Source of the DNA: Anthoceros angustus
Lineage: Eukaryota; Plantae; Anthocerotophyta
DNA: 64,000 nt
Assembly (NCBI GenBank): GCA_010909165.1
Contig: VJWM01000007.1
Span: forward strand, 1 to 64,000
Direction: 5' to 3'
Shown here piece by piece: positions 3,650 through 26,207 of the stretch (positions are counted from its first letter, which is position 1; each line of letters begins with the position of its first letter). Below the pieces are notes generated by a model, which saw nothing but the letters and a program-made list of their open reading frames with translations, was not told the DNA's origin and did no database searches. The translations under genes were made by a program, and so were the position numbers.

Positions 3650-5849
3650 CTAGGCGTCATCGGTGGCCTTGTCGGATCGGGAAGAAATGGGTGACATCGG
3701 AGCTAGCATGCTCTGCATTGCTAGTGTCCGCCTCATGTGTGGACACGGGTGGGCGAGTTTTCGATCTTTGGGAGGGTGAGCTTCGAGCAAGGTAGCGGAA
3801 GAGGGGAAATCAAAGCGTGGGGGCGGATCTGAGCCGGTGCGGGATCAAATTTGATGATAAAGCCAATGCATGCGACCAATTGGAGAGTTTTCGGGCATGC
3901 CTCGAAGCGGTGAAAGGATTATCTTGTCTGCGGAGAAAGTGATTCAAAGGCGAGTTGACCGTGGCGGCATGGCGTGGATAGCGAAGGCCAAGAAGTTGAA
4001 TGTCATCCGACACATTTTGCTGAGGTGCAATTCATTTGAAGTTGAGCGAGAACGGGCACTCAACACGGAAGATATAGCGAAATTTCAACGGTGTTTGATC
4101 ACATTGTAAGTACATTATTTGTCCCACAGTTAGCAAGTCGCAAACTAGTTTGCGCACTTTCGTCTTCATGTTGCACTATGAGCGTCTCCATCTGTCGGAC
4201 GAAAGCGGTGAAGAGTACAAAGAGAAGATGATACCCGATAGCTTCAAAGAGCACATCAATGCGGCAAGAAATTGGAAGAGGGTGGAAGATTTGCGAGAGG
4301 TGGGAGGAAGACAACGCAAACTAGACATTTTCCATGTTCGAAAAAGCAAGCAAAGGTCCGTTACCGGTAATAAGCGGTGATATTCGTGAAATGGCTGCCT
4401 ACTTGGGAAAAGAGAATACAAAATTTGTTGGTCGTCGATTTACCAAGGGGCAATTTATCGGAGACATGGGATAAGGAGATGACATGTGAGGATATGGAGA
4501 AGATAATGGATGGATTCATGACAATCACCAATGATAAGACTTTCCGTGATATTCATGCATGGACGGACCGGATCACGGGATGTCAAAATGCCGAAAATGG
4601 TGTGAAAAGGGGGTTTATACAATGGCAGGAGAAAGACAATTTGGTCTCGGACGAGGACTTTCTGAGGCTAAGTACATGGCATGGGGTATGGTGTTCACCC
4701 AACTGTTGAAGATATGAGGAAGTGCGGTGCATTGTCCAATAGTCGGCGAGATTGGAGCAATGCTGCGTTTATTCGACATAAGCGCGATCGTGAAGAAACT
4801 TTTGAATGTGTCCAACGATGGCCATGTTGTTTCTCCTTACCAAAAGCCAATAGGGTTGATGGTCACGCTATCGACCTATTCACGAGAAGAGGGAATGGGT
4901 TATAGATGGATGCTCGGGAAGCGGGGGGAATACTTGCGGCATTCTTTGGAAGGAGGCTGTATTGCTGTTGACCAAACGAGAGCACAATATTCATCGAGCA
5001 GTATTACAGGCCATGAAGTGTTTCCTAGACGAGGAAGAGTTGACCACCAAACCACACTGGTGGACATCCGGTTTTGCCAAGAGATGGCGGCGGGGGTCAG
5101 TTAAGCCCGGGGCACGCACTTGGTTCAAGGAACATGCGCACCCATCGACCTTCAAGACTTGAGTCAATCACGGGGCCCCGGAAGAAGGAAAGATGGCAAA
5201 AGGTCGGAAAACCCTAAGAACCCGAGAGGAAAGAAGTGCGAGACCGAGAAGCGACCCTACTTGGGACAACCAACATCTGAGCGTTTGGGTTTGGCGTCCC
5301 AAGGTGGAGAAAGCCATATCTTCCTCTTGCTATTTACGATCCATAGCAGGCTGCGGAGGCTATGACATCATCGTCCTTGGGGTCCGATGCCCAAGGAACT
5401 CTCGGCGAGGGTAGACTATAGGAAAGACTCCTGGGTTCTCTGTTTGGTGTCAAACTCATAACAATATCCCAAGGAAGAACTTGCACAGCTTGTAGGCGGA
5501 CCCCAAAGCGATTGTACGTGGCGGCGGATCGATGACTTGAGTGAGTTAGAGTAGGAGGATGATGGATTAAGTTGAAGGCGTTGAGGAGGATGATGAGTGG
5601 AATGATGAGTAGAGGATTAGAGTGTAGGTAATAGTGGAAGGCCTGGCGGAGCCTAAGGGGCCAGATCTGATGCGCAGCAAGCCTCTCCCATCGTTGGAGG
5701 AGCTAGTCTTGAGGTGGGGACAAAATCGCCCGGGCGTGGGTCGGGGGTCTTTGGGCCTTGGTGGTGGACTCCTTTGAGGGCATGACTACCCTGGGTTGTG
5801 TGTTGTGTGTTGTAGGTCGGGAGTTGGTGATTCGGGCGGTGTCGTGCCG

Positions 5850-6398
5850 TGTGATACTAATCTCTGCACTTGGGTTTAGTGTTTGATTAGCATTAATTAA
5901 TCTAATTACTTATCTTTAAGTAAGTAATTAGTGTTAATTAATCTAAGATGCTTATGTTAATTAAGCATTGATTAGTGTTAATTAATCTAAGGTGATTATG
6001 TTAATTAAGCATTGATTAGTGTTAATTAAACATGGTTAGCAATAGCTAAGTGGATAAGCTCAAGTATGCTTGGCATATTCCTTGCATATTATAGTGCATT
6101 CTTAGAATACAATAGCTAAGCTCAAGTAATATGCTTTGGCATATTCCTCGCATATTATAGTGTATTCTTAGGATATTTCCGCATATGATGCCAATATATC
6201 TTAGAATATGCCATGCTGTGGTCTAGTATATATAGACCCTTCCATTGAGGACAGTTCGCATCATAGCTTGTCCTCAGATATGCAATGCAAGAGTGCCAGT
6301 GAGGAGGCCAAAGCTATGACTCCGAGAGCGGCGTGAGAGGCGTCTCTGTGGGAGAGTGTGTTTGTGCCACGACGTGCCAGCTACCCTCCGTTGTTACA
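5850..6398 (+). repeat. Putative 5' LTR of the outer gypsy element
   Basis: Starts tgtgatac and ends tgttaca; AT-rich with internal subrepeats (gattagtgttaattaatctaa); clearly similar to 22355-22912. No canonical PBS seen after it. Confidence 0.7.
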
Positions 6399-6814
6399 AG
6401 CTATGATCTCGTGTGTGTACATTAGATAGGGCTGCATAGGCGGCTTAGGCGATGCTGCTAGGCTATGCGGCTAGCCTAGCCCAGGCGAGGCTAGGCGAGG
6501 CGACGCCTAGCTCTTTAAGCAAGCCAAGTCCAAGGCCAAGGAGAGGAGGCGGGAAGCCCAAGTCCAAGGCCAAGGAGAGGAGGCAAGCCCAAGTCCAAGG
6601 CCAAGGAGAGGAGGCGAAGGAGCCCAAGTCCAAGGCCAAGGAGGAGGAGGCGGAAGCCCCACCAAGGAGAGGAATGACCTCCAAGGGAGGTGGCCTTTTA
6701 AGGCCAACCAACCAAGGGAGAAACAAGAGTATTTTACTCTTGGGCCTGATTCCAAGGGATAAGGAGAAGTGGATAGCATGGGTATGTCATCACCCATTTG
6801 ATTTCACTTTCTAA

Positions 6815-6882
6815 AAGTCCTCCTGGTTGGCACCCCATCCAGTATCGATCCACCCCACGGTGCTTAACTTTGAGTTCTTATC
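6815..6882 (-). other. 5S rRNA-derived segment (Pol III box A/box C-like), resembling a Cassandra/TRIM LTR
   Basis: Reverse complement gataagaactcaaagttaagcaccgtggggtggatcgatactggatggggtgccaaccaggaggact aligns by eye to the plant 5S core ATCAGAACTCCGAAGTTAAGC...GTACTAGGATGGGTGACCTCCTGGGAAGTCC. It lies within a TG...CA bounded stretch, 6785-6909. Confidence 0.65.
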
Positions 6883-7289
6883 TTTGCTATCCAACTCACC
6901 CAACTCACAGACTATGTAGCCGCAGAGTATTTGTATGCAATTTAACATGCATAGATACTTAGAGGTTTCACTAATCACGATCTAAGATAGCGGGTGTGTT
7001 AACCTTGATTAAGGGTTTGACCTAGCCACTAACCGCCTGCATGCTGGACACACTCGATCCGGAGATACCAACCAGCAAGTCCATCGAGGCGAATTGAGTC
7101 CCGACCAGAGAGAAGTCTCGAACACCTCGATTTTGGTACCAATGAAGGACACGGAGGAACCCAGCCACAATCAACAATCTTTGAAGGATGCATGGTGGCA
7201 ACACACAAGACACGTTAGTCTGCGGGACAACTCGGTGGCGGCAGGAGGACTTGTCTTTGGAGTCGTCAAGATGGGAGAGACAAGGATCG

Positions 7290-7688
7290 AATGGAGTTGT
7301 TCACAGGAGCGGGCACCTTGCCCTTTGGAGGACTTCATCGAAATGCAGTTTGTGTGCGGAGATGGAATTGAAGGCCGGATACAGGCGATCTGGCTTCATC
7401 CAAATGCAGTACTTGGGGATGAAGCATTGGCGTGCTATGAGCGAGCGAGGTTGTTGGCGGCACGGAGGACCAGTGAGTGGCAGTTCAAGCTCGTAGGAAC
7501 CAATCGAATGACGGTGGCACCAAGTGGGCACGATCCCATCAGAGATGTTTGACATCTTTGGAGTTTCCTGCAACACGGATGAGAAGATCTCGGTGACACA
7601 CTTCAAAATGAAGTCGGTGAGGCTACGAAGATGGCTTACCGAAGATCGACCCAGGTTGATGTACGGACACCAAGATCATGGTAATGAG
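7290..7688 (+). pseudogene. gag N-terminal part of the outer element (frameshifted), cut by the nested insertion
   Basis: Gag-like pieces LEDFIE, LGDEALACYE and W-x-FK; gag resumes after 16456. Confidence 0.55.
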
Positions 7689-8888
7689 TGTGGGCTACGT
7701 GGACTTCCCTTGGGGTTAGAGGAGTACAAGTGGGGTTTTGTTTTTTTTGTAGGTTGGAATAGTAAAATAAGAGGCGGAAAAGGAGGAATAAGCACGGATG
7801 GCGCTTGGGAGACTTGAGTAAAGCAGACCACTCCGGACTAAAGCGGACACTCGGAGTAAAAGCAGGAGCAAGTCCGGACTACCTCGAGAAGGAAGACGGA
7901 CCACGAGGTCCGGACCCCGAGACAAGGTCGGACCTAGCCGGCGGACTCGGGGAAATAAGCGGACTCACGAAGTTCGGGGTCGAGGCGGCTCGGTCAGGCT
8001 GCGGCGATGAGGAGGGCCGACTTCGCTAGGGAAGCGAATGGCCGGTGGCCCCCGTGCGAGGACCGAGGAGGCGAGGGAGGATGGCGTCGTAATAGCAGCG
8101 GTTGTCGCCGCCGGTAGCCAACAGCGGGATTAGGGAGAGAGGAGGCCCGCCTCACGGATCATCGATTGGGGCGCCTGGCTATCGGGACGGAGATTGGACC
8201 ACCATCCGGCGGAACCCGAATCTTTCCACCGAGCGAAGGAGATAGGGAGGAAATAGGATGGTAGGCGGCCGATTAGGGCATCTTGGCTAATCGCTCGAAT
8301 AGGGGTGTAATAAAGGCCGACCTTGGGCGTAGTATAAGAGGGGCCGCTCTAGTAAAGTATCTTTCTCTTGGTGTTGATGCTGCGTTCTTGCGGACCCTTG
8401 GGCGTCTTCTTGCTACGAGTCTGAGTCTGACGGCACGGCGACTCGGGATCAAGGTCTGGTGACGGACTTAAGCGTGTGGTGGTGTGTGCGGGGAAGGGGC
8501 GAGGACCCTTGTTCGTCAGGCGGTCCAACGTCGGCGGGGAGCGTGTGAGCCGGAGGTACTCGGGAGGGTGTCTGCGAGCCGGACGGAGGCAGCGGAGCAA
8601 CGTAGGAGGTCTGTGTAGCCACTTGCGTTCTTTTCAAGGTTGATAAGTGTAGAGAGGCGATGAGGCAGATGAAAAGCAGTGACGAGCGGGCGCAGCGGGT
8701 CCTTAAGCGTTTTGGCCACACTGTCGGTGAAGCGTTATAAATAGGCTGGGTGTGATTGAGTGTGTTAAGGTGAAGTGGACCCAAGAAAGGTGAGAATCGG
8801 TGACGCAAGCAGCTATTCTCTTGGAGCGGACTCCATACCACAACGACAGGATTGTGCGCGCCCGGTGTCCATCGGAAGTCGCGCCACA
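7689..8888 (+). repeat. 5' LTR of the Athila-like element
   Basis: tgtgggctac...gtcgcgccaca; colinear with 15277-16456. Confidence 0.88.
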
Positions 8889-8891
8889 TTT

Positions 8892-8903
8892 TGGCGCCGT
8901 TGC
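8892..8903 (+). promoter_or_regulatory. Primer-binding site, tRNA-Asp type
   Basis: tggcgccgttgc 3 nt after the LTR end; matches the first 12 nt of the Athila PBS TGGCGCCGTTGCCGGGGA. Confidence 0.8.
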
Positions 8904-9259
8904 GGAATGAAATCGTTCGTAGCAAGCGTGGATGCGTGGGGCGTGAGGTAGTTAAGACGGTGCTAAGAGAGCCGGACGTTGATGCCGGGCGCTCCGGCGC
9001 GAGCACGTGAAAGACGACGAGCTCGGCGAGGACACCCACGGGTAAGCGGTGGACTTGTCGGATCGTGAGGAAGAAGTAGCACCACGCCGGGAAGTAAGGG
9101 GCGGTTCCTCAAACTTTGCGGTGACGATGGCAACAACGTCGACCAAACAATACTCCTCTTTGGAGGTAAGAAGGAGAGAGAAACCTTGTGGAGGATTTCG
9201 TGTCGCGAACTTCAATGGGAGGATCGGATGCACGACTCATCCAATTTGTTCCAAGGGGT

Positions 9260-12200
9260 CCTTCAGCGGGGGCGGCTCGGTGGAAGAAGTATAACCCAGA
9301 ATGCTCGCAACCTTGAGCGTTGAAGGATGCCTTCTTGGAACGATTCCGTGGAATTGACCAAGAAGGCTTATCAAACTCGAGAACAGCGAGGCAAGAGGAG
9401 AAGTTGGGATCGTACATCGAGCGGTTCTACGCGAGATCGACACCACCCACACCACCATGCAAAGGTGGTCGTTGGTTCGCTGGCTTACCTAAGCCAATGG
9501 CTAAACACGTCTTTGTTGGCGAAAGATGTGAGCAAGGCGGTCCGGCGGAGAATTACGAAGAATCGATGCACCAAGCGGCGGGCGCCTCTGAGGAAAGAAG
9601 AAGAAGAAGCGGGGTCGGACTCAAGATGAAGAGTCCTCGGAGGATGATGAGGCGAGGTGGCATCGGAGGAGGAGGAAGAGGACTCGAGGAAGAATCAGGA
9701 TGCCATGGAAGAAGAAGAACCTCGTCGAAGAAATAAGAAGAAAAAGCCCGTGGTGAAGCGGAGGGTGGAAAGAAGGAGGTTATGATACCGGTGCGAGAGG
9801 TTCCGACCCAACTCCGTTAAGAAGTAGCGGTGAGGAAGATTTGGAGCGGTGATGAAGAGGGTGGAGGAGTTGACGATCAACCAAGTGAAGGACAAAAGCG
9901 GCGGAAGGCGGCCACCAGTTCGAACCCATGTGGTGTGCGGTATGCCACCGATGGGCACTCAAAGTGCCCCTCCGGACCCGTGAACCGGGTGAAACGATTA
10001 TGGGAGGAGTCGAGGAATGGGAGGATGCTTACCAAGTGCAAGAAGCACCCGGGCGCTATCCCGATGTATCCAGGCGGAGGTCCATCCATACACCGCCTCC
10101 GCAACCCCGAATGGGAGGACCACCGAATCCTTGAGTGATGGTCTCTGGGCTGGGAACCCGGGCACTACTCCAACGCCGCCCATATCCCACCGCAAGGTAA
10201 TGGAGATTTTGAGCGTTGTGTGGGGATTATGGCGGTGGGCACATGGCGGGCGGTACCTTGTGTCCTCGTTCAAACGGTGCGCTCGCCACTCCCAGGGGGC
10301 CACCACGCCTCCCCCTAAGGCTGCGCCCGGCTACAAATTGAGGATGGCAGTGGCGGAGTGGGAAGAGGCGCCAAGGGACTTGGAACGGAGTGGTACGGCG
10401 AGGAGGAGAAGGCGGATCAGGAGTCTTGGAAGTGTCAAGCGCCGGAAGGAGGAGAGGAGGCGGTTTAAGAGGAAGAAAAATGAAAAGACGGATACGGAGG
10501 GCGGGACACACCAAGGAGGCAACTCCAGCTAAGGAAGGAGAGTTAAATCGACAGCTCGCGGAGGCCGCGGTCGAAGCCTCCGGAAGCGTTGGGAGCGGAC
10601 CCACCCAAAGCAACCTCGGTTTCCACCGGATGTGGCCCGAAGTGGCGGAGATGCTTGAGGAAGAGATCCGACAGACCGGAGTGGTCCGACCACCACAGTC
10701 TTGGCGAGGCTGGAGGACTCGAGGCGGCCGTGCCAAGGAGCCACACCTTTCAAGGTGGCCACGATGATGGATCAACAACATTTTGGTAACACGAGGCGTT
10801 GTTAAAGACAACCCGGTATCGGAGGCCATCAGGAGACACAACCACGAAACCCCTTGAGTCGAAAGGACAAGAATGTGGAGGTAAGGGTAGTGTCTCATAC
10901 GGACCGGCGCCCGATGGTTCGAGAAATTGCGGGGTGTGATCAAGAAGCACCTCTGGATACGGGGTCGAGTGAACCTCATCACGGAAGCCACCGCCGAGGC
11001 GGTTGGGGTTCACGCTTTGAGCCATCCACCAAAACCCTTCCGGATGGCGGATATGTCACGCGCGCCCGGTAGAGTTGTCCGAGTCCAAGCCACCATAGCG
11101 GAGCCCCTATACATTGGACTTGTGGTCATCAGACCGCGGACCTGCAGGGTGAGTGCTGTTGGGGCGTCCGTGGCTCGGGCTTGCTGACAAAGTTACACTT
11201 GGAAGGAAATCCACTTCAAATGGATTGGGATCCGAAGGTCGAGAGGAAGGGTGGCGCTCACTTGGAGTAAGGATACATACTGTGGGGAAACTGTGAGCAC
11301 CACAGAGGGGTACACCTCTGCCGAGGATAGTACGGATGATGAAAGGGAAGACACAGACGACGCCTACCCTTTCCCCAAAATCACATGGTCAGAGGAGGAG
11401 ATGGATTACCGGAGGGATGCCTTTGGAGCGGAGGTGGACGAGGAGGTCGTCGATTGCTTCCGGGTGGGCGCGACAGCAGAACAAGAGACGGGGGGCGGCA
11501 GTGAAGAAGAGGGTCCAGCAAAAGATGAAGAGGTGGGGACCGGGGAAGTAACCCGCTTCACCTCGGACGAACTCTTCAGAGAATGGGGGATGCGAGAGGA
11601 CGATCCCGAGTGGAGGAGGGGCGAGGTTTGGGCGGCGAGGCGCAGGAGCAGGGGCGGTGAGAACGGACGTGGAAGAAGTGGAGGTCGGCCAGGCAAATTC
11701 AAGTTTAAAAAGGTATGCCTCCGGACTGAAGGAAGGACTAAAGCACTTGGGGAGTTTTAGGTGTTCGCCTTCAAGGTCACGGACATGAAGGGCATTAGAA
11801 GAAGTGGGAGAGCATAAGATCGATTTGAAGCCGGGCGGTGCCGGTCCGAATCCGACAAGCTCAACCCCAAGTATTCGATCAAGGTGAAGGAGGTCCTTGA
11901 TAAGTACACAGGCGGACATCATTTTTCGTCCACAGAGTGGGTGGTGGTCCCAAGCAGCCGGGACAAATTCGGGTATGCCAAGATTGGAGGAAGCTCAACG
12001 CCGCAGCGGAGAAGGACCACTTCCGATGCCATTCGTGAGCGACATTTTGGACAAGGTGGTGGACGGACTACTTACTCCTTCCGATGGCTACTCGGATACA
12101 ACCAATTGCACCTAAGAGTCGGGGACAAGACGACCTTCACTACAGTGAGCGTTTGCCTACAAGAGAAGTGCCTTTGGGATGGCCGGAGCGCCGGGTCGTT

Positions 12201-14240
12201 CATGCGTGTATGGTGACCTCTTAGTGACTTCGAGGGACTTCATGGAGATATTCTGGATGATTTTTGTGCATGGGGGCGGACAAACACCTTGGACATCTAA
12301 GAAAGTGCTTGGGCCTGGGAGACTCAATTGAGCCTACACCGGAGAAATGCTACTTTGGAATACGGAGGGAATCTTGCTGGGACATGGTGTCGGTAGCGGG
12401 GAATCGAGGTGGACGGGACAAGGTCCGGGTCATCCGATCTCTCCGCCGGACGAACCTAAAGGAGGTGAGAGGTTTCACAGGAATGGTGGGATACTACCGC
12501 GGTTTATTAAGGACTTTGCGAAGAGGGCTAAGTTGAGAACTCTGCGGAAGGAGGAGGTTTGGACTGGTCTCGGGGAGGCGAGAGAGGCCTTTTGATTCTG
12601 AACACCTTGGTAAGCCGGTTCTAAGAGGACGGATGGAGCAAGAAATTTCATGTGTATGTAGGCGTCCGCTTTTGCTATCGGAGTAGTCTTGAGCGGAAGA
12701 CGACAAGCGAAGGGATTATCCGTATACTACGATGACTCACCCACGAACGAAATACACAACTACTGAGGCGCGAAGCCTGGGTATGGTATATCTTGTCGAA
12801 ATTCCCACTACACTGCGGTGAGTTTGTGTTCTATAGACCACTTCTTTGAAGCATCTGAATAAGGCGGACTGTCCGGCGGATAGCAAGGTGGATATTGTTG
12901 CTGCAGGAGTTCACGTTTGAAGTGGAAACAAGACAAAGGGCGACAATCACATTCTCACGATTGAAAACAGGTGTTGAGAGATCGGAAGATGCGTTCCGGA
13001 TGAGACATTGGTTGCGCGGTAAAAGTACAACCGGAGGAGCCCAGCCGAACCCCAAGCTACGAGGCGGCAGCGAGCGGAGAAGGGAGGGTCCGCGTCCGAC
13101 CCTCGAAGAAATGGAGCGGTACCTCGGGAATGGAGCTTCCGAAAATCGACTCGTGGACGGAGGCATTCGTGCACTATGCTCGACCCTTGAGAATGTACAA
13201 CGGTGTGTGTTCAAATTAGGGACGGAGTAGAGCGAAGGTACTTACCGGCGAGAGGAGGCGGTCGTCGGGAATGCACGAAGGATTGGGGGGAGGACACTAC
13301 GCAGCACAGGTCACCACCAAAAAGATTTTGGAAGCGGGATACTGGTGGCCAACAATGTATGGGGACACCCACCAGTTGGTGAAGAAGTGTGATGCGTGTC
13401 AGCGGATCGGGAAGCCGACTCCCACAACACAATGGCTGTTGGTGCCCATACTGGCACTAGCGCCTTTTGAGAAGTGGGGCATCGACTTCGTCGGACCTAT
13501 CGATAGCAATGAGGCACACACAAAAGCGGTACATTTTGGTGGCGGACTCACGGTGGGTAGAGGCGGTCGCGAGCGGACTCTGCAAACACGGTGGCCAAGT
13601 TCCTTTATGAGAACATCATCACGCGGTATGGGTGTCCGCTGCAGCTGGTGAGCGATAGGGGAACTCATTTCCTCAATGATGTGATCACCGCAATGACGGA
13701 CTATTTTGGCATCACACATGAAGATAGCCCTACAACCCAAGGCTAATGGGTTGTGAGAAGACCAATGGACTCATCTGCCGATCTCGAATAAACTTACGGT
13801 TAACTATGCACACGATCGATACCAAGTTGCCATCAAGATCTGGGCTTTGGGGGCGGAGAAGGTAACCACGCAACGAACTCCGTGACCTAACCTATGGGCA
13901 TTCGTTATGCGGTGGAGTTTGCGGTACCAACGCCACGGATTATGATGGAGGCCGGTTAGCGGATGAGAGAGCCAAGCGCGCTTGCTGGTTTGTCCAACAC
14001 ACGGAGGGTCGGGAAGAGGCACAACGGATGCAACATGCAGAATCAACGCGTGGCATGGCGCCTTGAATCAGTATGTGAAGGCGGAGATTTGGCCCTCCTT
14101 TATGATACGGCATATGCACTTTCCGGGCAAACTTCACTTGAGGTGGATGGGTCCTTACCGTGTGGTGCGGTGTCACCAAATGGGTCCGTTCAACTCAAGC
14201 GGTTGGATGGGGGTGAGCAGGTGGCGTGTAAGTACCATGC
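9260..14240 (+). pseudogene. gag-pol of the Athila-like element (many frameshifts)
   Basis: Gag LKDAFLERFRG; RT LPMPFVSDILDKV, DKTTFTT and I-L-D-D-F (~12250); RNase H LLQEFTFEV; integrase HEGLGGGHYAAQ...YWWPTMY...CDACQR and WGIDFVGP. Confidence 0.85.
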
Positions 14241-15542
14241 CTAGTGTTGGGCGTAGCAGATGAGAAGAAGGAGTATGTGGGCTACGGACTTCCCTTGGGG
14301 TTAGGAAATAAGTGGGGTTTTGTTTTTTGTAGGTTGGAATAGTAAAATAAGGCGGAAAAGGAGGAATAAGCACGGATGGCGCTTGGACGGGACTTGAGCA
14401 ACGGACCACTCGGAGTAACAAGCGGACCACTCCGGGTAAACACGGACCTGAGGTCCGGACCTCGGAGCCGGACCCACGAGTCCGGACCCGAGACAAGGTC
14501 GGACCTGGCCGGACTCGGAAATAAGCGGACTCACATGGGTGGGCGGTGCGAGACCTGCAAGCCGCGGTGGCAAAGTTCCTTTATGAGAACATCATCACGC
14601 GGTATGGGTGTCCTGCGGTGGTGAGCGATAGAGGACTCATTTCCTCAATGATGTGATCACTGCAATGACGGACTATTTTGGCATCACACATCGCAAGACA
14701 GCGCCCTACAACCCGAAGGCTAATGGGTTGATGGAGAAGACCAATGGACTCATCTGCCGTATCCTGAATAAACTTACGGTTAACTATGCACACGACTGGG
14801 ATACCAAGTTGCCATCAGCACTCTGGGCTTTCAGGACGGCAGAGAAGGTAACCACGCAACGAACTCCGTATTACCTAACCTATGGGCATTCGCCCGTTAT
14901 GCCGGTGGAGTTTGCGGTACCAACGCTCCGGATTATGATGGAGAGCCGGTTGATGAGGAGGAGAGCCTGAGCGCTTCTTGGGGTTTTGTCCAACACACGG
15001 AGGGTCGGGAAGAGGCACACAGCGGATGCAACTTGCAGAATCAACGCATGGCGTCAGCGCCGAATCGGGGGTATGTGAAGGCGGAGATTTGGCCCTCCTT
15101 TATGATGACGGCATATGCACTTTCCGGGCAAACTTCACTTGAGGTGGATGGGTCCTTACCGTGGTGCAGTATGCGCAAATGGGTCCGTTCAACTCGGCGT
15201 TGGATGGGGCTGCCGGGTGAGCAGGTGGCGTGTAAAGTACCATGCCTAGTGTTGGCGAGCAGATGAGAAGGGAGTATGTGGGCTACGGACTTCCCTTGGG
15301 GTTAGGAAATAAGTGGGGTTTTGTTTTTTGTAGGTTGGAATAGTAAAATAAGGCGGAAAAGGAGGAATAAGCACGGATGATGGCGCAGGACGGGACTTGG
15401 AGTAACCGGACCACTCCGGACTAAGCAACGGACCACTCCGGGAAACAGCGGACCACGAGGTCCGGACCTCGGAGGCCGGACCACGAGGTCAGGACCCGAG
15501 ACAAGGTCGGACCTGGCCGGACTCGGAAATAAGCGGACTCAC
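13542..15542 (+). repeat. ~1-kb tandem duplication of integrase core + PPT + first ~260 bp of LTR
   Basis: 13542-14524 is repeated at 14525-15532; extra partial LTR at 14276-14534; gcggactcac present at 13542, 14525 and 15533. Confidence 0.85.
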
Positions 15543-16456
15543 GAAGTTGAGTGACGAGACCAGGTCCGACTGCGGCGATGAGGAGCCCGCCGACTTACGC
15601 TAGAAGCGAATGGCCGGTGGCCCCACCGGAGGACGAGGCGAGGGGAGGATGGTCGTAGTAGCCGGCGGTTGTCGAGACCATGCCCGTGCAGCGAGTTAGG
15701 GAGAGGAGGGCCCGCCTCACGGATCATCCGATTGGGGCGCACAAGCTGTCGGACGGAGATTGGACCACCATCCGGCGGAACCGAGTCTTCTTGGCAGAGA
15801 TAGGGGAGGAAATAGGATGGTAAGGCGGCGATTAGGGCATCTTGAGCCATCGGCTCGAGAATAGGGGTGTAATAAAGGCCGGACCTTGGGCGTATTATAA
15901 GAGGCTGAGGCCTCTAGTAAAATATCTTTCTCTTGGTGTTGATGCGCGTTCTTGGACCCTTGGGCGTCTTCTTGCTAACACGGTCCCGAGTCACCGGCGC
16001 GACTCGATGATCAAGGTGGACTTAACGTGTGGTGGCGTGTGTGGGGAAGGACGGCCGAGGACCCTTGTTCGTCAGGCGGCGGTCAACGTCGGCCGGCCGG
16101 AGCGTGTGGCGGAGGTACCGGGAGGTGTCGCGAGCCGGGCGGAGGGCGGAGCAGCTAGGAGGTCTGACGTGCCACTTGCGTTCTTTTCCAAGGTTGATAA
16201 GTGTAGAGGCGATGGAGGCATTTGAAGAAGCGGTGTGAGCAGGCGGAGCAGGTCCTTAAGCGTTTGGCCACCGGGCTGTTCGGTGAGAGCGTTATAAATA
16301 GCTAGGTGTAAGCGAAGATTGAGTGTGTTAAGGTGAAGTGGACCCGAAGAAAGGTGAGAATCGGGCGGCGCCAGACTATCATTCTCTTGGAGCGGACTCC
16401 ATACCACAACGACACGGATTGTGGCGCCCGGTCATCATGTTGAAAGTCGCGCCACA
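15277..16456 (+). repeat. 3' LTR of the Athila-like element
   Basis: Preceded by purine tract agatgagaagggagta (15261-15276); ends gtcgcgccaca. Confidence 0.88.
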
Positions 16457-16459
16457 GGC

Positions 16460-17100
16460 AGCAGGTTAAGAAATGCTGCAGGCATTGCCATATCGCATGA
16501 AGGTGCAACAAAGCGGTGCACGGCCGCGAAGGCAACACTACACCCTCAAGGAAGTGTATGAGATGGGCGACAAGATAGGGCCGTGACACTTTCTCTCGTC
16601 TTTGTTGCAAGTGATTACTCCGGCACAAGTAGGAGTGGTGGACGACATGACCGCGGAGGTCAGTGGAGGAGCTCGGCGAGACAAGCCGCCCAAGTGGCGA
16701 GCCCTGCGTGAGGTGCCGAGGGGCGGACCATTCCCCTCATGAGTGCGAGCATGCATTCGGAGGAGTCAAGGGTGAGGAGCCATGCCCTAGGTGTGGAGAG
16801 TATGGGCACAATGAAGCGGCATGTTGGGAGAAGCATCCGATTGCGGCCTACGGGTTGTCGAGCGGCAACCCGGGCATCTGCGTCAACCTCATCCACAAAA
16901 TCGCGAAGAGCAAAGGCGCGTGGAGGAGGCCGCGAAGTCCGTGGACAAAAGCGGGAAGCATCAAAGAAGGCGATGGGACATTGGCACGCCTTGCAAAGCT
17001 GGAGAAGTTGGTGCGAAGGCGAAGATCAAGGAGCGGTTCATCATCGAGGACGAAGAAGATGAGCACAAGCTTGGATACATGGCGGTGACCGGATCAAGGG
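16460..17100 (+). pseudogene. gag C-terminal part of the outer element with two zinc knuckles
   Basis: CVRCRGADHSPHEC and CPRCGEYGHNEAAC (two C-X2-C-X4-H-X4-C motifs) in ORF 16663-17088. Confidence 0.85.
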
Positions 17101-17539
17101 CAGGGAAGAAACCTCTGCGCTACGAGAGAAGATAGCTCGGAGGAAGAAGAGGATGTCTTGACACACGGTCACGGAAGACACGGAAGGAAGCTTGGGATCC
17201 TCTTCCGAACCTATGCCAAGATGCCAAAGTCGTTTGAGCCATTGCCAGCAGCAAGCTGTGGGAGCAACATCAAAGTCAGTGGGCGATGTGGAGAAACCCA
17301 TGCAGATTCTTGTGAGCGATGGCACAAAAGCTTGGAGATGCCATGTTTCACCTACAAGACATGGGGTTGGCGTGAAGGAAGTCGGGGTTTGACTCGGCGG
17401 ATGTTGACAACCCTTGAAGGCGAAGCAAGTGTCCAATGTGCCACACGGTGCAATGATGTCATTCGACCTCAGCCAAGCATCTCGTGGAAGCGGAATCTTT
17501 GCAGTGGGAGTGGCTTTGGTCAACAATCGGGAGAGGCAC

Positions 17540-17760
17540 ATTGAAATCAATGGATTCGCACCAAGGAGGTGTTGATTGACACCGAGCACGGCCGGTGATC
17601 GTTGGAAGAAGAGTGAAGGAAGCGTTGGGTCTCCACCAAGAAAGGTTGAAGGAAACCAAGTGGAAGATCCGGACCTGGGACCACGGAGCATGTGTTGGGG
17701 TGACAAGGTACAAGCTGAAGGTTTCATTCAAACCAAGAACAGCAGACTTCACCTTTGTAC
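17540..17760 (+). pseudogene. Retroviral-type aspartic protease
   Basis: KEVLIDT(G)ARPVIVGRRVKEALGL, catalytic Asp codon at 17578-17580, with a 1-nt gap in the Gly codon. Confidence 0.75.
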
Positions 17761-18268
17761 CTTTGCTTGGTCATGCGGACATTTGATGTCTTCTTTGAGG
17801 CGGACGCTTTGTACAAACCAGTCATGGTGGATTTGTGGACGGAGACAGTCTACTATCGACCGGTGGAGAAGCTGGAGCAAAACCGATGAGCGGATTGCCC
17901 GCATCCCTCTGCTGCATGGCAAGGATCATGAGAACCTCATTGCCAGCGTCTACCCAGTGTTTGGCGCCGTGGTGAAGGACACGCCATACGTGCTTGAACC
18001 TCTTGGCGTGTGTCTAACAACCGCAATGACCCGGGATGGAGGATTTGACGAGGAGGAGGAAGACAAGCTAGGGTTGCAACCACCCTCGGAGGAGGTTCTT
18101 CAAGTCACCGACGGAGCTGGTGATGCGGCAATGAGCCGTGCAAAAGGCTGTGGAGGATGGTGCAAGAGGACCGTGTCCTATGAGGAGAACTAGTAAGTTC
18201 TTGCCTAGGGTTGAGCCTGTTTGTGACCTAAACACCCGGTCATCACATGGCGACCTCGGGAAGGCGGC

Positions 18269-19170
18269 ATAGTGCTCGTGGAACTCTTTGGAGGCATCGA
18301 TCGGCTTGGGCAGTGCTAAAGTGTGGCATCAAAGTGCGAAGATCGTGCATTGTGACCCGGATCCAAAAGCAAGGATTGTGTCACGAGCGCGTAAGAGACT
18401 TGATGGGGAGTACCTAACCTCCGGCGTGGGAGTCGGTGAAGGGTTACCAGGCGCCGATGGATGTTCGCATGATAGGGTTGTCCCATTTGAGTTGTCTTGG
18501 GCAACCGGTGGACCTTGTCATCGCAGTTGGGAGTGTCAAGGACTATCCTCTGCAGCAAGGGTCAAGGTCTCAAGGATCCACGAGCATTGTTCTATGACTG
18601 ATGAGGATCTTGCGCTTGATCCGAGAAAGGGCAAGAAAGGCCTTGTGGATACATGTTGGAGAATGTGCCCGGCATGCATGAGCGTGAAGAAGCAAGTTCG
18701 GAGGACTTTGCCACGATCCGAGGAGTGTTGGGTCGAGCTTCTATTGGATGCAACTCAATTTGGTTCGAGGGCTCATAGGTTGAGGTCCATGTGGACTAAC
18801 CTTGCTCCCTTGGAACATTTGAAGTGTGCGAGGTCGTTCAGCGACCTAATCATGTTGTCAAGGATGTGCTAGCATCGGAAGGCATGCCCAACAAGTCATC
18901 AAGGACAATGCCGCACTTCCCACGCTGGACACCCCATGGCGGCTTGGCCAACCTTTGTGTCTAAGTCCAAGTCTTACGCCTTGGAACCATGGCCCGTTGT
19001 GGTGGGAGGACATGGCGAGGCCTTGGGAGAGCCAACAGCCACAGAGAGGGAGTTGGCCATGGGATTTGCTGCCGGAGCCACGAAGACACCGGGAGTGACC
19101 GAGAAGGAACGGTGTCGATTGCTTGGGCAAGCATTTGACATGAACATGATGACCTGGTTGTTTAGCGCTG
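18269..19170 (+). pseudogene. DNMT3-like DNA (cytosine-5)-methyltransferase domain embedded in pol (frameshifted as assembled)
   Basis: Motif I IVLVELFGGI (18269-18298); II/III-like KCGIKV...IVHCDPDP; IV DLVIA(G)WECQGLS (Cys codon 18534-18536); VI GYMLENVP (ENV 18659-18667); VIII LDATQFGSRAHRLRSMWTNL (18744-18803); IX EPTATERELAMGF (19029-19067); X RCRLLGQAFDMNMMTWLF (19110-19163). All are in canonical order. Confidence 0.9.
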
Positions 19171-19399
19171 GAGTCGCTTACCAACTTCGAAACCAGAAGA
19201 AGGCGGGGTTGAAGCAGCGGGTTCGGTGGGTGAAGGACATTCCAGCACTCGCATCTCAACGGAGAAGGCGAGTTTGGAGGGCAAGGAGAGCGAGCACGTA
19301 GAGGCGTGCAAGCCATCGAGCCACAGCCACATGAGTGGTTAAGGCGTCGAGTTGAAGAGCAATCAGCGTCGGCTAAAGGAGTTGTTGGAGGCATCGCGA

Positions 19400-20600
19400 C
19401 ATGTGTTTGCTTTCACGCTTGCGGAGATGGGGAAGTACACCAAAGGGAAGTTCCACATAGAACGACCACGGATGAACCGGTGTTCAGAGGCACTCGGCAA
19501 GGTGAGTGGGATTTGGTTGAGAATCGATGCCAAGAGCTTCTCAAGCTAGGGCTGATTCGACGATCTAACTCGCGATGCAATGCGGCAGCTTCCGAAAAGA
19601 AGGATGAGAATGGATTGTGGACGGAGAGGAGAATGTGTGGTGACTATCGGCCGTTGAACGAGCGAATCCCACATGACCACTATCCCATGCCGAAGAGATC
19701 TTCGACACCATTGGGTCCGCCAAGTTCTTCTCAACATTGGACTTGAGGCTAGGGTTTCACCAAGTAGAGATCGCCAAGAAGACAAGAAGAAAACGGTTCG
19801 GGCGTAGATTGCTTGTACGAGTGGAATTACATGCCATTTGGGTTGAAGACATCGCCAACGCAGTTCAAAGGTACATGGACAATGAGCTCAAGGACTTGCA
19901 TTTCGCCAAGTGCTACATTGATGATGTCATCATCTTCAGCAATACCTTTGAGGAGCATCTACAACATCTTGATCTTTGCTAGGCTGCTTGTGGGTTGAAG
20001 GCCCATCCAGGAAGTGTCGATTTGGAGAGGATAAGGTGTTGTACTTGGGTCATTGGATCACGCTGGATCTCGCCGCATGCCACCAAGGTGGAGGCAATCG
20101 CGCATTCGCCAAACGACATCTCAAGTTGAGGGCATTCTTGGGTTTGGCGTTACTACGGAAGTTCATTCCGCGGATGAGCGGATTGCGCGCCATTGAATGA
20201 CTTGTTGAAGAAGTTGGTGACTTGGCGTTGGACTCAAGAGGAGGAGTCGCTTTCATGGAGTTGAAGGGTAGACTCATGAGCTCGCCAATTCTTGGTCATC
20301 CAAACTTGATGGCCGTTCGTACTTTACGATTGGAGCAAGTACGGGCATAGGCGATCTTGGCGATCAATGACAAGGAAGAGGAACATGTCATTGCCTATGC
20401 CGTCGGAGCAACAACCGGAGTCCAACTACTCGCCTATGAAGGAGAATGTCTTGCGGTGTGGGCGTCGGACACTTTCGTCCGTACTTGTTTGGACATCAAT
20501 TTTAATCACGACCATCAACCCTTGCATTGGTTGATGACGAACGCCAAGCTTACGGAAAGGCGGCGGTGGGCTCTCATTCTCCGAGTATGACTTTGTCATC
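19400..20600 (+). pseudogene. Reverse transcriptase and RNase H of the outer element
   Basis: RRMCGDYRPLN, DLRLGFHQ, YEWNYMPFGLKT, CYIDDVIIFSNTFEEHLQHL (YIDD 19914-19925); RNase H YEGECLA and DHQPLHWL. Confidence 0.9.
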
Positions 20601-20899
20601 GAACACCGAGCGGTAGAGTTCACTCTAATCGATGGGTTGTCAAGGAATCCTCTACCTCGTGAAGACACTACGGGGCGGGCAAGATTCGGATGACGAGCAA
20701 CCCGGGTGGGGGAGTAGTCCAGATACCATGTTGGCCATCGCATGAGGATCAAGACGCCCTCCACTCATCGCTTTGTATGCGAGTCCGTCAGGACATCGGG
20801 CGGATGCAATAGCGGTGACCTTCCTAAGGTCGGGAATTGCCACAAGGGCTTTCATCTCGAGCGGGCCAAGCTACGCGAGAAGGTGGCTCGGTACTATTG

Positions 20900-22182
20900 G
20901 AAGGAGGACATAATGTATGTCCGTGATTCTCGGGAGATAGAATTGTACCCAAGCCGGAGGACGGGTGAGACTCATCACCAGTGCATGAAGGCTTAGGGCA
21001 TTTTGGTGCTAAGCGCACCTACAGATGCTCGAGCCCACACACTTTTGGGCAAGGATGTATGGAGATGTGGAAAGGTCGAATGTAGAGTGTGCGATCGAGT
21101 GAAGGCAAGGTTCACACCAATGATGTTGTGCTTCACTCTCTGCCGATCCGAGGACTCTTCTACATTGGAGTGTGGATCTCATGCCGACATGCGAGACAGC
21201 GTCGAAACAAGCATGTCATGCTAATGGTGGAGCATTTCAAGTGGTGCGAGGTTGCCATCTTACCCAAGCGTGACTCTCGGCTTACCGATGGGCGTTCTTG
21301 GCTTCCGTTCTTAGTCGATATGGAGCATGTGCGAGGTTCTCACCGGGGCAAAGAATTCGTGGGGAATTTCAAGACTTGCTTGACAGAGCTTGATTGATCA
21401 TCGACGTCGTCGAGATCATCCTCAAGCCGATGGACTTCGAGCGCTTGGTGCAGACCTTCAAGCGGGCCTTGCGCAAATATTGTCTCACAAATGACCAAGA
21501 CATGGGATGAAGGGATGCCATACCTAGTGCTAGGTGCAGGTGAGCAATCAAGCACCTTGAGCAATTTTTCACCATACTACTTGTTGTATGGGCGACAACC
21601 ATTTTGCCAAACGTGAGGCAAGCAAGGCTACAAGCACCCGTGGATTGGCGCAATGCGGATGATTGCCTACGAGACACGGAAAGGCGGGCGAGCTTTTCAA
21701 CGGATCATGCCCATGGCAATGGAGAACCTTGCCATAGCGCAACACAGGGATCAACTGCGCTATGCTTACACACGAGGAGGGACATGGAAACCCAAGGTGC
21801 GCAAGTTCGAAGTTGGAGATTATGTCTACCTGCATCGGAAGCCAGGCAACACCTTGGAGGTATCCACCAGCAGAGTCATCTTGCGGTCGTGCGAGTAGGC
21901 AAAGATGGAGTGCTTGAGCTCGAAGGATCCGATGGCCGAAGATGGAAGGATCACCTCAAGAACTGCGCACCATGCCACTTACCCAATCTGGACCCTCAAC
22001 TACGGCCTACAATGTGGCGTCCACCCAAAGACTTGGAGTGTCAGGTTTGTGGACGTACTGATGATGATGATGTAATGCTTCTTTGTGATCGGTGCAATAG
22101 GGGATACCACATGTTTTGTGTTCAACCACCTCTTGACGACATTCCCGAGGAAGATTGGTTTTGTGCACAATGCACTACATGA
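20900..22182 (+). pseudogene. Integrase with C-terminal PHD finger
   Basis: HHCC zinc-finger remnants (CRVCDR), core MLMVEHFKWCE and DGLRALGA, C-terminal YAYTRGG...FEVGDYVYL; then in frame CQVCGRTDDDDVMLLCDRCNRGYHMFCVQPPLDDIPEEDWFCAQC (22039-22179), stop at 22180-22182. Confidence 0.9.
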
Positions 22183-22354
22183 GGTGCGTACGTATGTAGT
22201 CCTACTAATGATAATGTTTTGACTTGGAGTCTCACATTATCAGGGGGGATTGGTTTGCACCTATATATCTGCGTATTAGATTTGTTTGCTTGGTTGTTGG
22301 TCGAGGAAGTGCTTATATGAATTCAAGTGCTTACCTCGTTCATTATCATCTTAG

Positions 22355-22912
22355 TGTGATACTAATCTACGCACTTGGGTTTAGTGTTTGATTAGCATTA
22401 ATTAATCTAATTACTTATCTTTAAGTAAGTAATTAGTGTTAATTAATCTAAGTGCTTATGTTAATTAAGCGTTGATTAGTGTTAATTAATCTAATGTGCT
22501 TATGTTAATTAAGCATTGATTAGTGTTAATTAAACATGGTTAGCAATAGCTAAGTGGATAAGCTCAAGTAATATGCTTTGGCATATTCCTTGCATATTAT
22601 AGTGTATTCTTAGGATACAATAGCTAAGTGGATAAGCTCAAGTAATGCTTTGGCATATTTGCATATTATAGTGTATTCTTAGGATATTTCGGCATATCTT
22701 GACAATAGGATATCTTAGGAATATGCCGATGCGGTCTAGTATATATAGACCCTTCCATTGAGGACAAGCTCGGATCATAGCTTGTCCTCTAGATATCTCT
22801 GAGGCGTTGTGAGGAGGCCAAAGCTATGACTCAGGAGGCGATGTGTGAGGAATTTGCGTGTTGTTCTCGTGGGGAGTGTGTTTGTGCCACGGCGCTACTC
22901 TCTCTGTTGTTA
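22355..22912 (+). repeat. Putative 3' LTR of the outer gypsy element
   Basis: Direct repeat of 5850-6398; flanked on both sides by an 85-bp duplicated segment. Confidence 0.7.
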
Positions 22913-23179
22913 TTGGTTTGCACCTATATACTGCGTATTAGATTTGTTTGCTTGGTTGTTGGTCGAGGAAGTGCTTATATGAATTCAAATTGCTTACTGA
23001 TCGGCCGATGCAAGTGGTGCTATGAGGGAGAGTTAGAGGGCGCCTTGCTTGTTGAGGGGGCTAAGGTTGTGAGTGGGTGTAGGCAACGATTGATCTCTCA
23101 GAATTCGGCTGTCCACACAACTCTTATGAGATGAAACCCAACGTGCTAAGCGACAGTGGGATAAGTGTGGCCACTAGAG

Positions 23180-24835
23180 GATGAATCTCGGAAGCCCCGA
23201 GATTTTCCTCCCACACTTTGTCACTTGGCACTCTGAGGTGGAGACTCAACTTGGCAGCAAGCTTAAGATCCTTAGGAGCGACAGTGGGGGGGAGTTTGAC
23301 TCTACTGTATTTGGCGACCATTGTCGATAACACGGTATTATCCGCCAAACCACCGTGCCTTACACTCCTGAGCAGAACGAGGTTGCTGAGCGCGGCCACC
23401 GAACTCAAGTGGAGATGGGCCGATCTATGTTGCACCATGCTTCCCTCGCTAACCGCTTTTGGGTTGAGGCTTTGAACACAGCTAATTACCTTCTTAATTG
23501 CCTCCCCACTAAGGCGGTCGACGGCAAAACTCCTTATGAAGCATGGACCGGCCGCAAGCCAGACCTCAGCCATCTCCACATCTTCGGCTGCCCGGCCTTT
23601 GTTCACGTTCCTAAGGCCATGCGGCGGAAGCTTGATTCGAAGTCCCAAAAAGGCCTCCTCCTTGGCTACGGCAAAACCGTCAAGGCCTATAGGATTTATT
23701 TGAAGGACTCTCGGCGCCTTGTCTTCGCCCGTGATGTCATCTTCAACGAGGACCCCCTTCTTCTCTCTCCCGATGCTGGGGTAGACGTTGACGTCCTTGA
23801 CCTGGATGTTTCCACTGACGTTGGCGCAGGGGGGGAGGATGAATGGGAGCCCGCACCACCGCCAGCAACACACACTCCCCATGCTTCTCAAGCTGCAATC
23901 CGCCCACCGGTGATTGCGCTCGTGCCTGTAGCACCGGCGCCAGCTCCTCCCGCCTCTCCTGCTACTCCTACAACTCCATCCACGTCTCGAGCTCCCTTCT
24001 CTCCCCTACCCTCCAGCAGCAGTGACTCGGACCTCGACCTTGGTGGCTTCCCCCTTGTCCCTGCAGGCGAGGTATCTCACCCCCTTGACTTACCTCCTCA
24101 TGCAGATGGACCTCAAGCACTTTGGCGCTCGACAAGGGAGCGGACCCTCAGCAGGAAGGCACTCGAGAACCTTGAGCAAACTCAACGAACCTCAAATACA
24201 CAGGCCACCAGCATGGCCACATCTACTCCCGTTCAAGTTTCGCTCTCCACCTCAGATGTATTAATTGGAGCCTACCACACTCGCCGCCGCCTTGTCTGGG
24301 CCACAAGTGGCAGAGTGGAAGAAGGCTGTTGACGACGAGTTTCAATCATTGCACGATAACACCACATGGCGCCTTTGTGATCTACCACCTGGCAGGTCCG
24401 CAGTCGGCAGCAAGTGGACTTTCAAGATCAAGTACACTGGTGCCGGTGCCATTAACCGCTACAAGGCAAGGCTCATGGCACAAGGTTAAACTCAATGTGC
24501 AGGGGATGACTACGATGCATATTATCTTTTCTCCCCTATCATCCAGACTAGTTCGTTGCGCGTTATCCTTGCCTGTGCTACCTTTCATGATTGGGAGACG
24601 GTACAGCTCGATGTTAAGACAACATTTCTTTTATGGAATGTTGCAAGAGGAGATATACATGCGTCAATATGAAGGTTACGAAGAGAAAGGCCGCGAACAT
24701 CTTGTGTGTTTGCTGCAGCGTAGCATATACAGCCTTAAGCAATCTGCTAAGAATTGGAACGTTTATATGGACGACTTCCTCTTGGCATGCGGATTCACTA
24801 AGTGCCCATCGGACGGTAACGTTTACATCCTCCGG
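23180..24835 (+). mobile_element. Ty1/copia pol fragment (integrase core + partial RT), truncated and with stops
   Basis: LKILRSDSGGEF, PYTPEQNEVAER, KTPYEAWTGRKPDLSHL; RT WRLCDLPPGRSAVGSKWTFKIK, YKARLMAQG, QLDVKT, SIYSLKQS; INT precedes RT. Confidence 0.92.
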
Positions 24836-26207
24836 TCAGGAATTATGGAGTTTTGTAGAGCCTGAATTTCTAATAATGGAGCTTGTGTGAACAAGTCGTG
24901 TTGCCTACAGATTGTATCTAGGTGAGTAAGGACCTTATCTTTGATGTGTTGGGACGAGATAGGTAAAGGGACATCAAACGATGATAAAAATTTCTTGATC
25001 ATCGTGGGTTTTGTGATTGTTCTTGTGTAAATAAGAATGAAAATTGAATGTAGGTCCAAGCATATTCTTGGGGGTCAAGACACCCTCGCAGTGATAGCTC
25101 CTCTCCTATGAGGAGCAAGACTGAGCATGTTCGTATCCAACCATAAACCCTTAGGTTCTCATTGGCTTCTTTGAGATAAGTGGTTTCTCTACAATCTCTT
25201 TGCCGTTGCAACTAGTGATCAATTCTATTTGCTCTTCTTAGTAGGCTCTATTGCCGTTGGCTTTGCAATGTGCAGGTCATGATTGTTTATGTCGAGTCGG
25301 TGGCTAGTGGCTCTCATACCATGACAATTTTATATATTAGTTGGTTACGGATTAAGCCTCATGCTTGGATTCATCGGAATAGTTTATGTGTTATAGGCAA
25401 AGCGTTCTTAAGCAGTAAAGGTGAAACGATACCTAGTTGTAACGTTTGCTATGTGCCTATTGATAGCTAAAGTGAAACGTGCCCTAATTAGTGCCCTAGC
25501 TCACTATAATTGTAACAATATCAGGAAAAACGGTGTGCTGACTGCAGTGATAAGCATTGGTCGCCACAATAGTCATATGCTTGACGTAATTGAAGGGCTG
25601 TCTATGATTTCTTCCTCAATTCAATTCAATAAAAGTGGTCTCACACACACAACCTCCCGAGCGGAGTCAAGCATGCCCTAACTCAGTGACGACACAATAG
25701 GCCATAGCCATTACATCTTCCTACTCATTAATATTTATCCACGATGTCATGTTCAATATGGTGGGTTCCATGGCTGGTTAGTGTTGAGTTGGTGGACAAG
25801 GCTAGTGTTCGTATGAAATGAGGCATTGACAGGGTTGTGCTTTACCTGGTGCTTGGAGAATTCTCCTTGAGCCCTGGTTCCTAAAGTCTGTCTTCATGCT
25901 CCCCTACATTAGAGGTTTGTGCATGCGTTAGGGACCCTAATGTACTAGTGTTTTGCAAGAACCAAGAGGAATATGAGGGGTAGTGTCCAACAAATTGCCA
26001 ATATGATGCAAAGTATGAGTATGTGGTAAAGGGTTGAGGTAAAATGATCACTTGTCACGATCTCAACATGTCTCTTTATCTCTTTTAGGTCTGAGTTTCA
26101 ATTGCTAACCTTTATCGAGGGTGGGCTGGAAGTTGAATTGATCAAGCTTACTTTGTAACTTGAACACAGATATCCAACTCGATGCGGCTTTCACAACGCC
26201 CACCTTG

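Follow-up and report, generated by a model that had tools for sequence, protein, structure and literature searches.

In the accessible parts of a 2026 preprint (bioRxiv 10.64898/2026.05.21.726589), DNA methyltransferases (DNMTs) borne by transposable elements are listed for Symbiodiniaceae, streptophytes (Gypsy-DNMT3), Cymbomonas and Euglena only, and those of another article (PMC12344493) restate the cases of 2018. The closest described kind to the element reported here is KnitGypsy-Dnmt3 of the charophyte Klebsormidium nitens, which, according to the accessible text of PMC5890265, combines gypsy domains, a non-rearranged DNMT3-type domain in the Pol open reading frame (ORF), A-coding-B-A-B repeats and a streptophyte host. 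Here, we describe E2, a Ty3/gypsy retrotransposon in a 64,000-nucleotide stretch of the land plant Anthoceros angustus (Anthocerotophyta; assembly GCA_010909165.1, contig VJWM01000007.1, positions 1 to 64,000, forward strand; hereafter the window), whose pol contains the relic of a DNMT3-like domain. E2 shares the traits of KnitGypsy-Dnmt3 that could be compared from its description (the gypsy domains, the DNMT3-type domain in Pol and the repeat layout), and what is new is the land-plant host range.

Several other systems share part of this organization. As far as the accessible text of PMC5890265 goes, SymbioDIRS-Dnmt3 and SymbioLINE-Dnmt of Symbiodinium are likewise retrotransposons bearing a cytosine methyltransferase, and the former has a DNMT3-type domain inside Pol as well as A-coding-B-A-B repeats, but they are DIRS (with a tyrosine recombinase) or LINE elements of dinoflagellates, whereas E2 has a DDE integrase and the gypsy order. 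The EpiLTRs of Cymbomonas and Euglena are long terminal repeat (LTR) retrotransposons with a cytosine DNMT and a chromatin reader; however, in the accessible parts of the preprint describing them (bioRxiv 10.64898/2026.05.21.726589), their DNMT groups as the sister of DNMT4 and is accompanied by a Dam-like methyltransferase and a chromodomain, whereas E2 has a DNMT3-like domain and lacks a Dam domain, its reader being a PHD finger. Host DNMT3A/B/C and plant DRM proteins, which are the best solved matches, have the same catalytic-domain fold and motifs, but the E2 domain is without PWWP and ADD, shows the canonical rather than the DRM motif order, and lies in a retroelement polyprotein.

The methyltransferase domain was delimited by homology, and its motifs were placed by a motif map on a three-frame translation spanning 18150-19420:

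18254..19223, forward strand: relic of a DNMT3-like C5 cytosine methyltransferase domain (family hidden Markov model, and tblastn of the relatives L001, P0002 and P0005)
18281-18298, forward strand: motif I, ELFGGI, phase 2
18528-18548, forward strand: motif IV, WECQGLS (in the context GWECQGLS), phase 0
18659-18667, forward strand: motif VI, ENV, phase 2
18747-18803, forward strand: motif VIII, DATQFGSRAHRLRSMWTNL, phase 0
19044-19067, forward strand: motif IX, ERELAMGF, phase 0
19116-19163, forward strand: motif X, RLLGQAFDMNMMTWLF, phase 0

The six motifs that the original prediction had read from the sequence were recovered at the same place and in the canonical order of C5 methyltransferases (I, IV, VI, VIII, IX and X, with coordinates rising accordingly), though spread over three phases. 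The catalytic residues are still readable, namely the Cys of WECQGLS, the Glu of ENV and the Arg-x-Arg of AHRLR, and they sit in different phases. From 18281 to 18747 the reading phase runs 2, 0, 1, 0, 2, 0, which amounts to five changes, and an in-frame TAG at 18870-18872 breaks the last frame of the domain. Since the motifs are distributed over three phases and an in-frame stop follows, the window copy is dead and non-functional, and no enzyme is made from it. Methylation by the element of its own cDNA or new copies, which had been proposed from the sequence, is therefore impossible for this copy.

Homology of the domain to its relatives is firm despite the silence of PF00145, a Pfam family with a curated cut-off of 22 bits that gave no match at E <= 0.001 among the window ORFs of 104 amino acids or more. 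The last ORF of pol (21544-22179), which bears the PHD finger, was used as a query and led to P0002, a polyprotein of 1463 amino acids with the order RNase H, DNMT-like region, integrase and PHD, and a family hidden Markov model (HMM) was built on 115 related domains spanning motifs I to X that were cut from relatives of P0002. When the whole 64-kb window was searched as six-frame pieces, this HMM gave E < 1 only at the DNMT stretch, where its matches are colinear:

18254-18298, forward strand: family HMM match, 9.2 bits
18632-18739, forward strand: family HMM match in another phase, 13.5 bits
18738-18830, forward strand: family HMM match, 33.5 bits
18906-19205, forward strand: family HMM match, 81.3 bits, E 8e-24

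In tblastn, the intact ORF of the metagenomic locus L001 aligned to 18339-19187 (E 1.3e-26) and the DNMT region of P0002 to 18741-19223 (E 1.4e-25). A phmmer search with 18273-18869 against 1.84 billion representatives returned two proteins at E <= 0.001, P0004, which was discarded as a spurious repeat protein, and P0005, a fragment of 163 amino acids that is 43% identical to the window and has GWECQGLS. PF00145 recognizes P0005 (32 bits) and L001 (32.6 bits) above its cut-off, as well as four of six tested algal polyproteins (27.4-39.2 bits), and the nearest named Atlas cluster to the DNMT domain is a PF00145 fragment family (0.95). A protein homologue search with 18873-19301 found none among 1140 candidates, and a search of genome contigs and viral contigs with the L001 ORF gave no relative. 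That short motifs were assembled by chance from three reading frames, which do widen motif finding, would agree with the silence of Pfam; with family HMM E values of 8e-24 and 3e-10, reached by no other piece of the window even at E 1, and tblastn E values of 1e-25 to 1e-26, we regard the probability of such a chance likeness as negligible.

The DNMT domain belongs to a repeated gypsy family. Part of 18200-19300 is contained in seven public sequencing runs carrying three organism labels. Run X1 may come from the same source as the window. Contigs at 80% likeness or more were counted over 17400-20100 in 30 bins. The numbers were 981 contigs covering 30/30 bins in X1, 3016 contigs covering 30/30 bins in X2, and 1751 contigs covering 28/30 bins in X5, while the contigs of X3 also cover the DNMT bins. 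These contigs fall in all identity classes, from 99% and above to under 90%; they are short and show cover rather than intactness, and depth was not taken as copy number. Many one-base length variants were observed among the copies, some of them at or beside the sites where the window copy changes phase. None of the runs listed is designated as RNA; run X4, which is only guessed to be RNA, yielded 6 contigs, and a share of 0.9 of these runs on into sequence unlike the window.

Because contigs of three organisms cover the whole DNMT part, the domain is a trait of the repeated family and not a one-off capture. The word "captured", applied to this copy in the original prediction, hence does not fit, the domain being present in the contigs of three organisms and homologous to algal and metagenomic retroelement DNMTs. 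Accessory domains of Pol are often gained by capture, and E1, a distant gypsy element of the same window, shows no DNMT, so that one might consider whether this copy alone picked up, between protease and reverse transcriptase, a piece of some other element or of a host DNMT3/DRM gene. However, the contigs of the three organisms cover both junction regions together with the whole segment, the same junction of DNMT and then reverse transcriptase recurs in the metagenomic loci L001, L002 and L003, the motif order is not the rearranged one of DRM, and the closest sequences are retroelement DNMTs, which makes a one-off gain very improbable.

E2 spans 5849 to approximately 22997, with the order gag, protease (PR), DNMT, reverse transcriptase (RT), RNase H (RH), integrase (INT) and PHD finger, and consists of two pieces (5849-7688 and 16457 to approximately 22997) around a nested element, E1. 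Apart from the DNMT domain, its parts are as follows:

5849..6396, forward strand: 5' terminal repeat, designated A1, which is AT-rich and contains a TATA-like tract
6397..7688, forward strand: 5' internal part, leader and probable N-terminal part of gag, assigned from position and orientation
6449-6811 (forward), 6466-6786 (reverse), 7013-7549 (forward) and 7304-7675 (reverse): ORFs of the 5' internal part
16651..17088, forward strand: C-terminal part of gag, with two CCHC zinc knuckles at 16705-16746 and 16783-16824
17569..17586, forward strand: protease active-site relic VLIDTE, with DTE in place of the usual DTG/DSG and a stop soon after
19423..20249, forward strand: reverse transcriptase over three frames, with YIDD at 19914-19925
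20351..20675, forward strand: RNase H (PF17917, E 1.1e-5; tblastn)
20933..21916, forward strand: integrase in two frames, comprising the zinc-binding and core parts (matched by P0001-P0003 and algal polyproteins in tblastn)
22039..22173, forward strand: PHD finger, the last domain of pol (PF00628, E 3.4e-14), with a stop TGA at 22180-22182
22249..22334, forward strand: repeat B1, 96.5% identical to B2
22354..22912, forward strand: repeat A2, 86% identical to A1
22912..22997, forward strand: repeat B2, the 3' end of E2

Membership of Ty3/gypsy is indicated by the Pol order PR-RT-RH-INT and the DDE integrase, and the DNMT domain does lie between the protease relic and the YIDD of the RT within this pol, as had been predicted. 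The RT is matched by PF00078 (E 3.1e-7 at 19677-19982) and by tblastn of six algal polyproteins, and approximately 260 bases separate RH from INT. Pfam matches to the C-terminal part of gag are weak zinc-finger matches, the region of the VLIDTE relic gave no Pfam protease match, and none of the four ORFs (104 amino acids or more) of the 5' internal part matches Pfam at E <= 0.001. That E2 runs on across E1 is suggested by the fitting order and orientation of its parts; the bins of 5700-8023 carry contigs from X1, X2, X3 and X5, and among the contig joints listed none links 7688 to 16457. The repeat layout is A-coding-B-A-B, repeats A1 and A2 being 86% identical across 577 columns, and no homologue of B was found upstream of 5849, that is, none precedes A1. 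The best solved relatives of the PHD finger are the PHD finger of ATXR5 (2.1e-13) and those of KDM5A, BAZ2A, KMT2D and UHRF1/2. Several of these PHD fingers bind the unmodified histone H3 tail.

The type of methyltransferase was examined on relatives, the window copy being too damaged for fold prediction or whole-domain scoring. An alignment of ten relatives (profile A1) was searched against all sequences of the PDB, and its matches included DNMT3A (2.8e-13), DNMT3C (1.3e-10), DNMT3B (2.1e-10), tobacco DRM (2.3e-7), M.HaeIII (1.2e-5), M.HhaI (2.7e-5), DRM2 (3.7e-5) and DNMT2 (2e-3), with DNMT1 not among the best 60. With single sequences, the P0002 domain also had DNMT3A as its first PDB match, and the L001 ORF matched DNMT3A first (1.3e-5), followed by M.HhaI (3.8e-4). 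An AlphaFold2 model of the domain of P0041 (predicted local distance difference test 80, predicted template modelling score 0.83) was compared with Foldseek, and among the matches listed up to rank 50 there were DNMT3A/B/C only, the best being 6w89_A (E 5.8e-16, template modelling score 0.79 on the target). The domain is thus predicted to be of the DNMT3 type, as originally proposed, its relatives lying nearer to DNMT3 than to other C5 methyltransferases by profile, single sequence and predicted fold.

Conservation among the relatives shows that the DNMT3-type domain is under strong constraint in them. The Cys of motif IV and the Glu-Asn of motif VI are kept in 115/115 related domains, the two Arg of motif VIII in 113/115 and 115/115, respectively, and in motif I the glycines vary hardly or not at all.

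Of 8000 candidates scored against the DNMT region of P0002, at least 199 polyproteins reached E <= 0.001, and the 115 domains of the family HMM were cut from 120 of these. The polyproteins include a chlorophycean gypsy family (P0002 and P0006-P0124) with the order RT-RH-DNMT-INT-PHD, whose named hosts are Haematococcus lacustris, Hariotina reticulata and Tetradesmus deserticola (the last from a transcriptome), and we have not met a description of this family in the accessible parts of the literature examined. It shares with the window the signatures GW[EP]CQ, DA..FGS.AHR.RN.WTN, ERE.A.GY and G...D, has homologous RT and INT and likewise ends its integrase with a PHD finger, but it differs in having the DNMT between RNase H and integrase and is 27-40% identical to the window. 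By tblastn pieces, identity between the window and the algal family ranges from 25 to 44%, with 48% for a short PHD piece of P0041. The DNMT follows RNase H in 99/99 algal-type proteins keeping RT or RH and precedes RT in 0/121 algal-type proteins with a DNMT match, and 74 proteins read RT-RH-DNMT-INT-PHD, whereas the order in the window is PR-DNMT-RT-RH-INT-PHD, with the DNMT (18254-19223) ahead of the RT (19423 onwards). That two families have the same two domains in different orders bears on the movement of modules within Pol. As a separate observation, P0008 shows a weak match to a D12 N6-adenine methyltransferase at residues 1833-1865, behind its PHD finger (PF02086, 17.5 bits, cut-off 22), which brings to mind the dual-methyltransferase EpiLTRs.

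A scan of metagenomes revealed three loci (L001, L002 and L003) with the DNMT-then-RT order of the window. L001 has one open frame of 476 amino acids with WWPCQGLS, ENV and GNAMD, followed by one stop and then a typical RT leader in the same frame. L002 and L003 are AT-rich decayed copies in which the end of a DNMT is followed by RT, RH, INT and PHD, and their RT and INT are 33-67% identical to those of the window (tblastx segments). The flank of L003 showed no Pfam family in any of four ORFs and no direct repeats. A further locus, L004, was dropped as a bacterial contig (ArgRS, peptidase M50, GC 71%).

Two phylogenetic analyses disagree on the placement of the window DNMT. In a quick tree, its C-terminal half fell inside the chlorophycean clade (Shimodaira-Hasegawa-like approximate likelihood ratio support 96-98), which, together with a distribution that is so far patchy, would suit horizontal transfer from an alga or a bryophyte instead of vertical descent from a streptophyte-alga Gypsy-DNMT3. 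However, a constrained tree keeping the window, L001 and P0005 together was better by 11.6 log-likelihood units (approximately unbiased test p 0.79), the identity to algal proteins is as low as given above, and the domain order is unlike that of all the algal-type proteins keeping RT or RH. We therefore consider such a transfer unlikely.

Taken together, it is probable that the window holds the decayed DNMT3-like domain in a dead copy from a repeated Ty3/gypsy family whose intact members likely methylate CG de novo. In such members, the DNMT domain would be translated within Gag-Pol; it might then be released from the polyprotein, or act inside it, in the particle or the pre-integration complex, where it would likely carry out de novo CG methylation on the new DNA copy of the element or around the insertion site. 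The PHD finger on the integrase likely reads the histone H3 tail and could bias integration, or the action of the enzyme, toward a chromatin state. What is said here of enzyme activity, substrate and PHD finger function is our inference. In the accessible text of PMC5890265, SymbioDIRS-Dnmt3 carried out de novo CG methylation in yeast and the idea of self-methylation was proposed; that methylation of their own new copies is the actual role of the present family can be suggested only tentatively.

Several observations weigh against this interpretation. No intact copy of the plant family emerged from the analysis, and the window copy bears, in addition to the five phase changes and the stop in the DNMT, more breaks in RT and INT as well as the nested element in gag. 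PF00145 matched none of the three single-frame DNMT pieces at E <= 1, scored P0002 at 16.9 bits, under its cut-off, and had no match at E <= 0.01 in two of the six algal polyproteins. The residue preceding the catalytic Cys, usually P, is E in the window, in P0005 and in 82/115 relatives. The domain of KnitGypsy-Dnmt3 gave no detectable methylation in yeast, a result that its authors call inconclusive in the accessible text of PMC5890265. With regard to the repeats, the B1-A2-B2 pattern is seen in a single copy and may instead represent a normal LTR together with part of an additional one.

Three of these points, namely the E for the canonical P, the marginal PF00145 scores and the KnitGypsy-Dnmt3 result, would also be expected if the domain were kept as a non-catalytic module, similar to DNMT3L or serving as a scaffold that binds DNA or chromatin. 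Such a role seems improbable to us, considering that the Cys, E-N, R-x-R and motif I glycines are invariant or nearly so in the 115 relatives, that L001 has the canonical PCQ, ENV and GN, and that the residue before the Cys is P in 22/115 relatives (otherwise S in 8 and A in 2). A catalytic domain in the intact members of the family is accordingly the reading we retain, with the qualifications given above.

The nested element, which has no part in the DNMT element, is delimited as follows:

7689..16456, forward strand: E1, a separate, complete-looking LTR retrotransposon nested in E2

Its LTRs (7689-8888 and 15277-16456) are approximately 1.2 kb long, 81% alike and bounded by TG...CA, with a primer-binding-site-like TGGCGCC after 8888, a purine tract before 15277 and Integrase_H2C2 at 13220-13648. 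The 5-bp flanks of E1 are unlike each other, and its interior bins (8024-16157) are hardly covered, if at all, by X2, X3 and X5, which is not taken as evidence. A role of E1 as a DNMT-less relative of E2 was considered and dropped, the likeness being limited to single short high-scoring segment pairs. The E1 LTRs (81%) are more diverged than the A repeats of E2 (86%), though E1 is the inner element, and E1 contains an internal tandem duplication (13542-14534 and 14525-15542, 88%). Approximately 96 bases of the start of its LTR recur in inverted orientation, 3547-3641 on the forward strand corresponding to 7701-7798, 14284-14376 and 15285-15377 on the reverse strand (81-86%); the piece at 3547-3641 sits outside both E1 and E2.

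Directly after the 3' end of E2, a copia-type fragment (23331-24862) without gag and protease parts has matches to retroviral SH3-like PF25597 (E 3.6e-29) and RVT_2 (E 2.9e-10). The AT-rich right part of the window contains a 1.3-kb tandem duplication (57984-60640, 98.6% identical) and a short tandem array (55448-56007). Host genes are located at 35000-38819, 45455-46702, 47503-49260, 49972-51152 and 27423-27836 (reverse strand), and their products are a DUF3741/VARLMGL/DUF4378 protein, an F-box protein, an ESCO-type acetyltransferase, pentatricopeptide repeats and an ERG4/ERG24 exon. The F-box protein has an At3g26010-like/KIB1-4 propeller and is assigned by the Atlas to Streptophyta clusters; GC content at third codon positions is 0.93 in its gene versus 0.49 in the DUF3741 gene. 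KIB1-4/DUF295 F-box proteins are known as angiosperm families, and bimodality of this value is typical of grasses, which the contrast between the two genes resembles.

The absence of an established case in embryophytes, noted in the original prediction, agrees with the literature searched, which gave no land-plant DNMT retrotransposon, most subscription journals being outside our reach. The survey of 2018 scanned annotated proteomes with PF00145, according to the accessible text of PMC5890265, and such a scan would miss a masked and divergent domain of a transposable element. The accessible part of PMC6338049 states that such transposons are absent from land plants such as tracheophytes, a statement that would be overturned by a repeated plant gypsy family combining a DNMT3-like domain with a PHD finger.

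At the level of the host, flowering plants have reportedly lost their own DNMT3, as Yaari and colleagues are said to have concluded in 2019. It is conceivable, albeit speculative and on balance doubtful, that plants harbour a high-copy gypsy lineage with its own DNMT3-type de novo enzyme and a PHD finger that reads the H3 tail, recently active copies of which write part of their CG methylation. If this were true, plant epigenomes would contain a hidden layer of methylation encoded by the elements themselves, one that Pfam-based proteome scans miss. A plant DNMT gypsy family would show that standard domain scans overlook the domain in plant repeat libraries, and it would offer a direct route to ask whether transposons set their own methylation.

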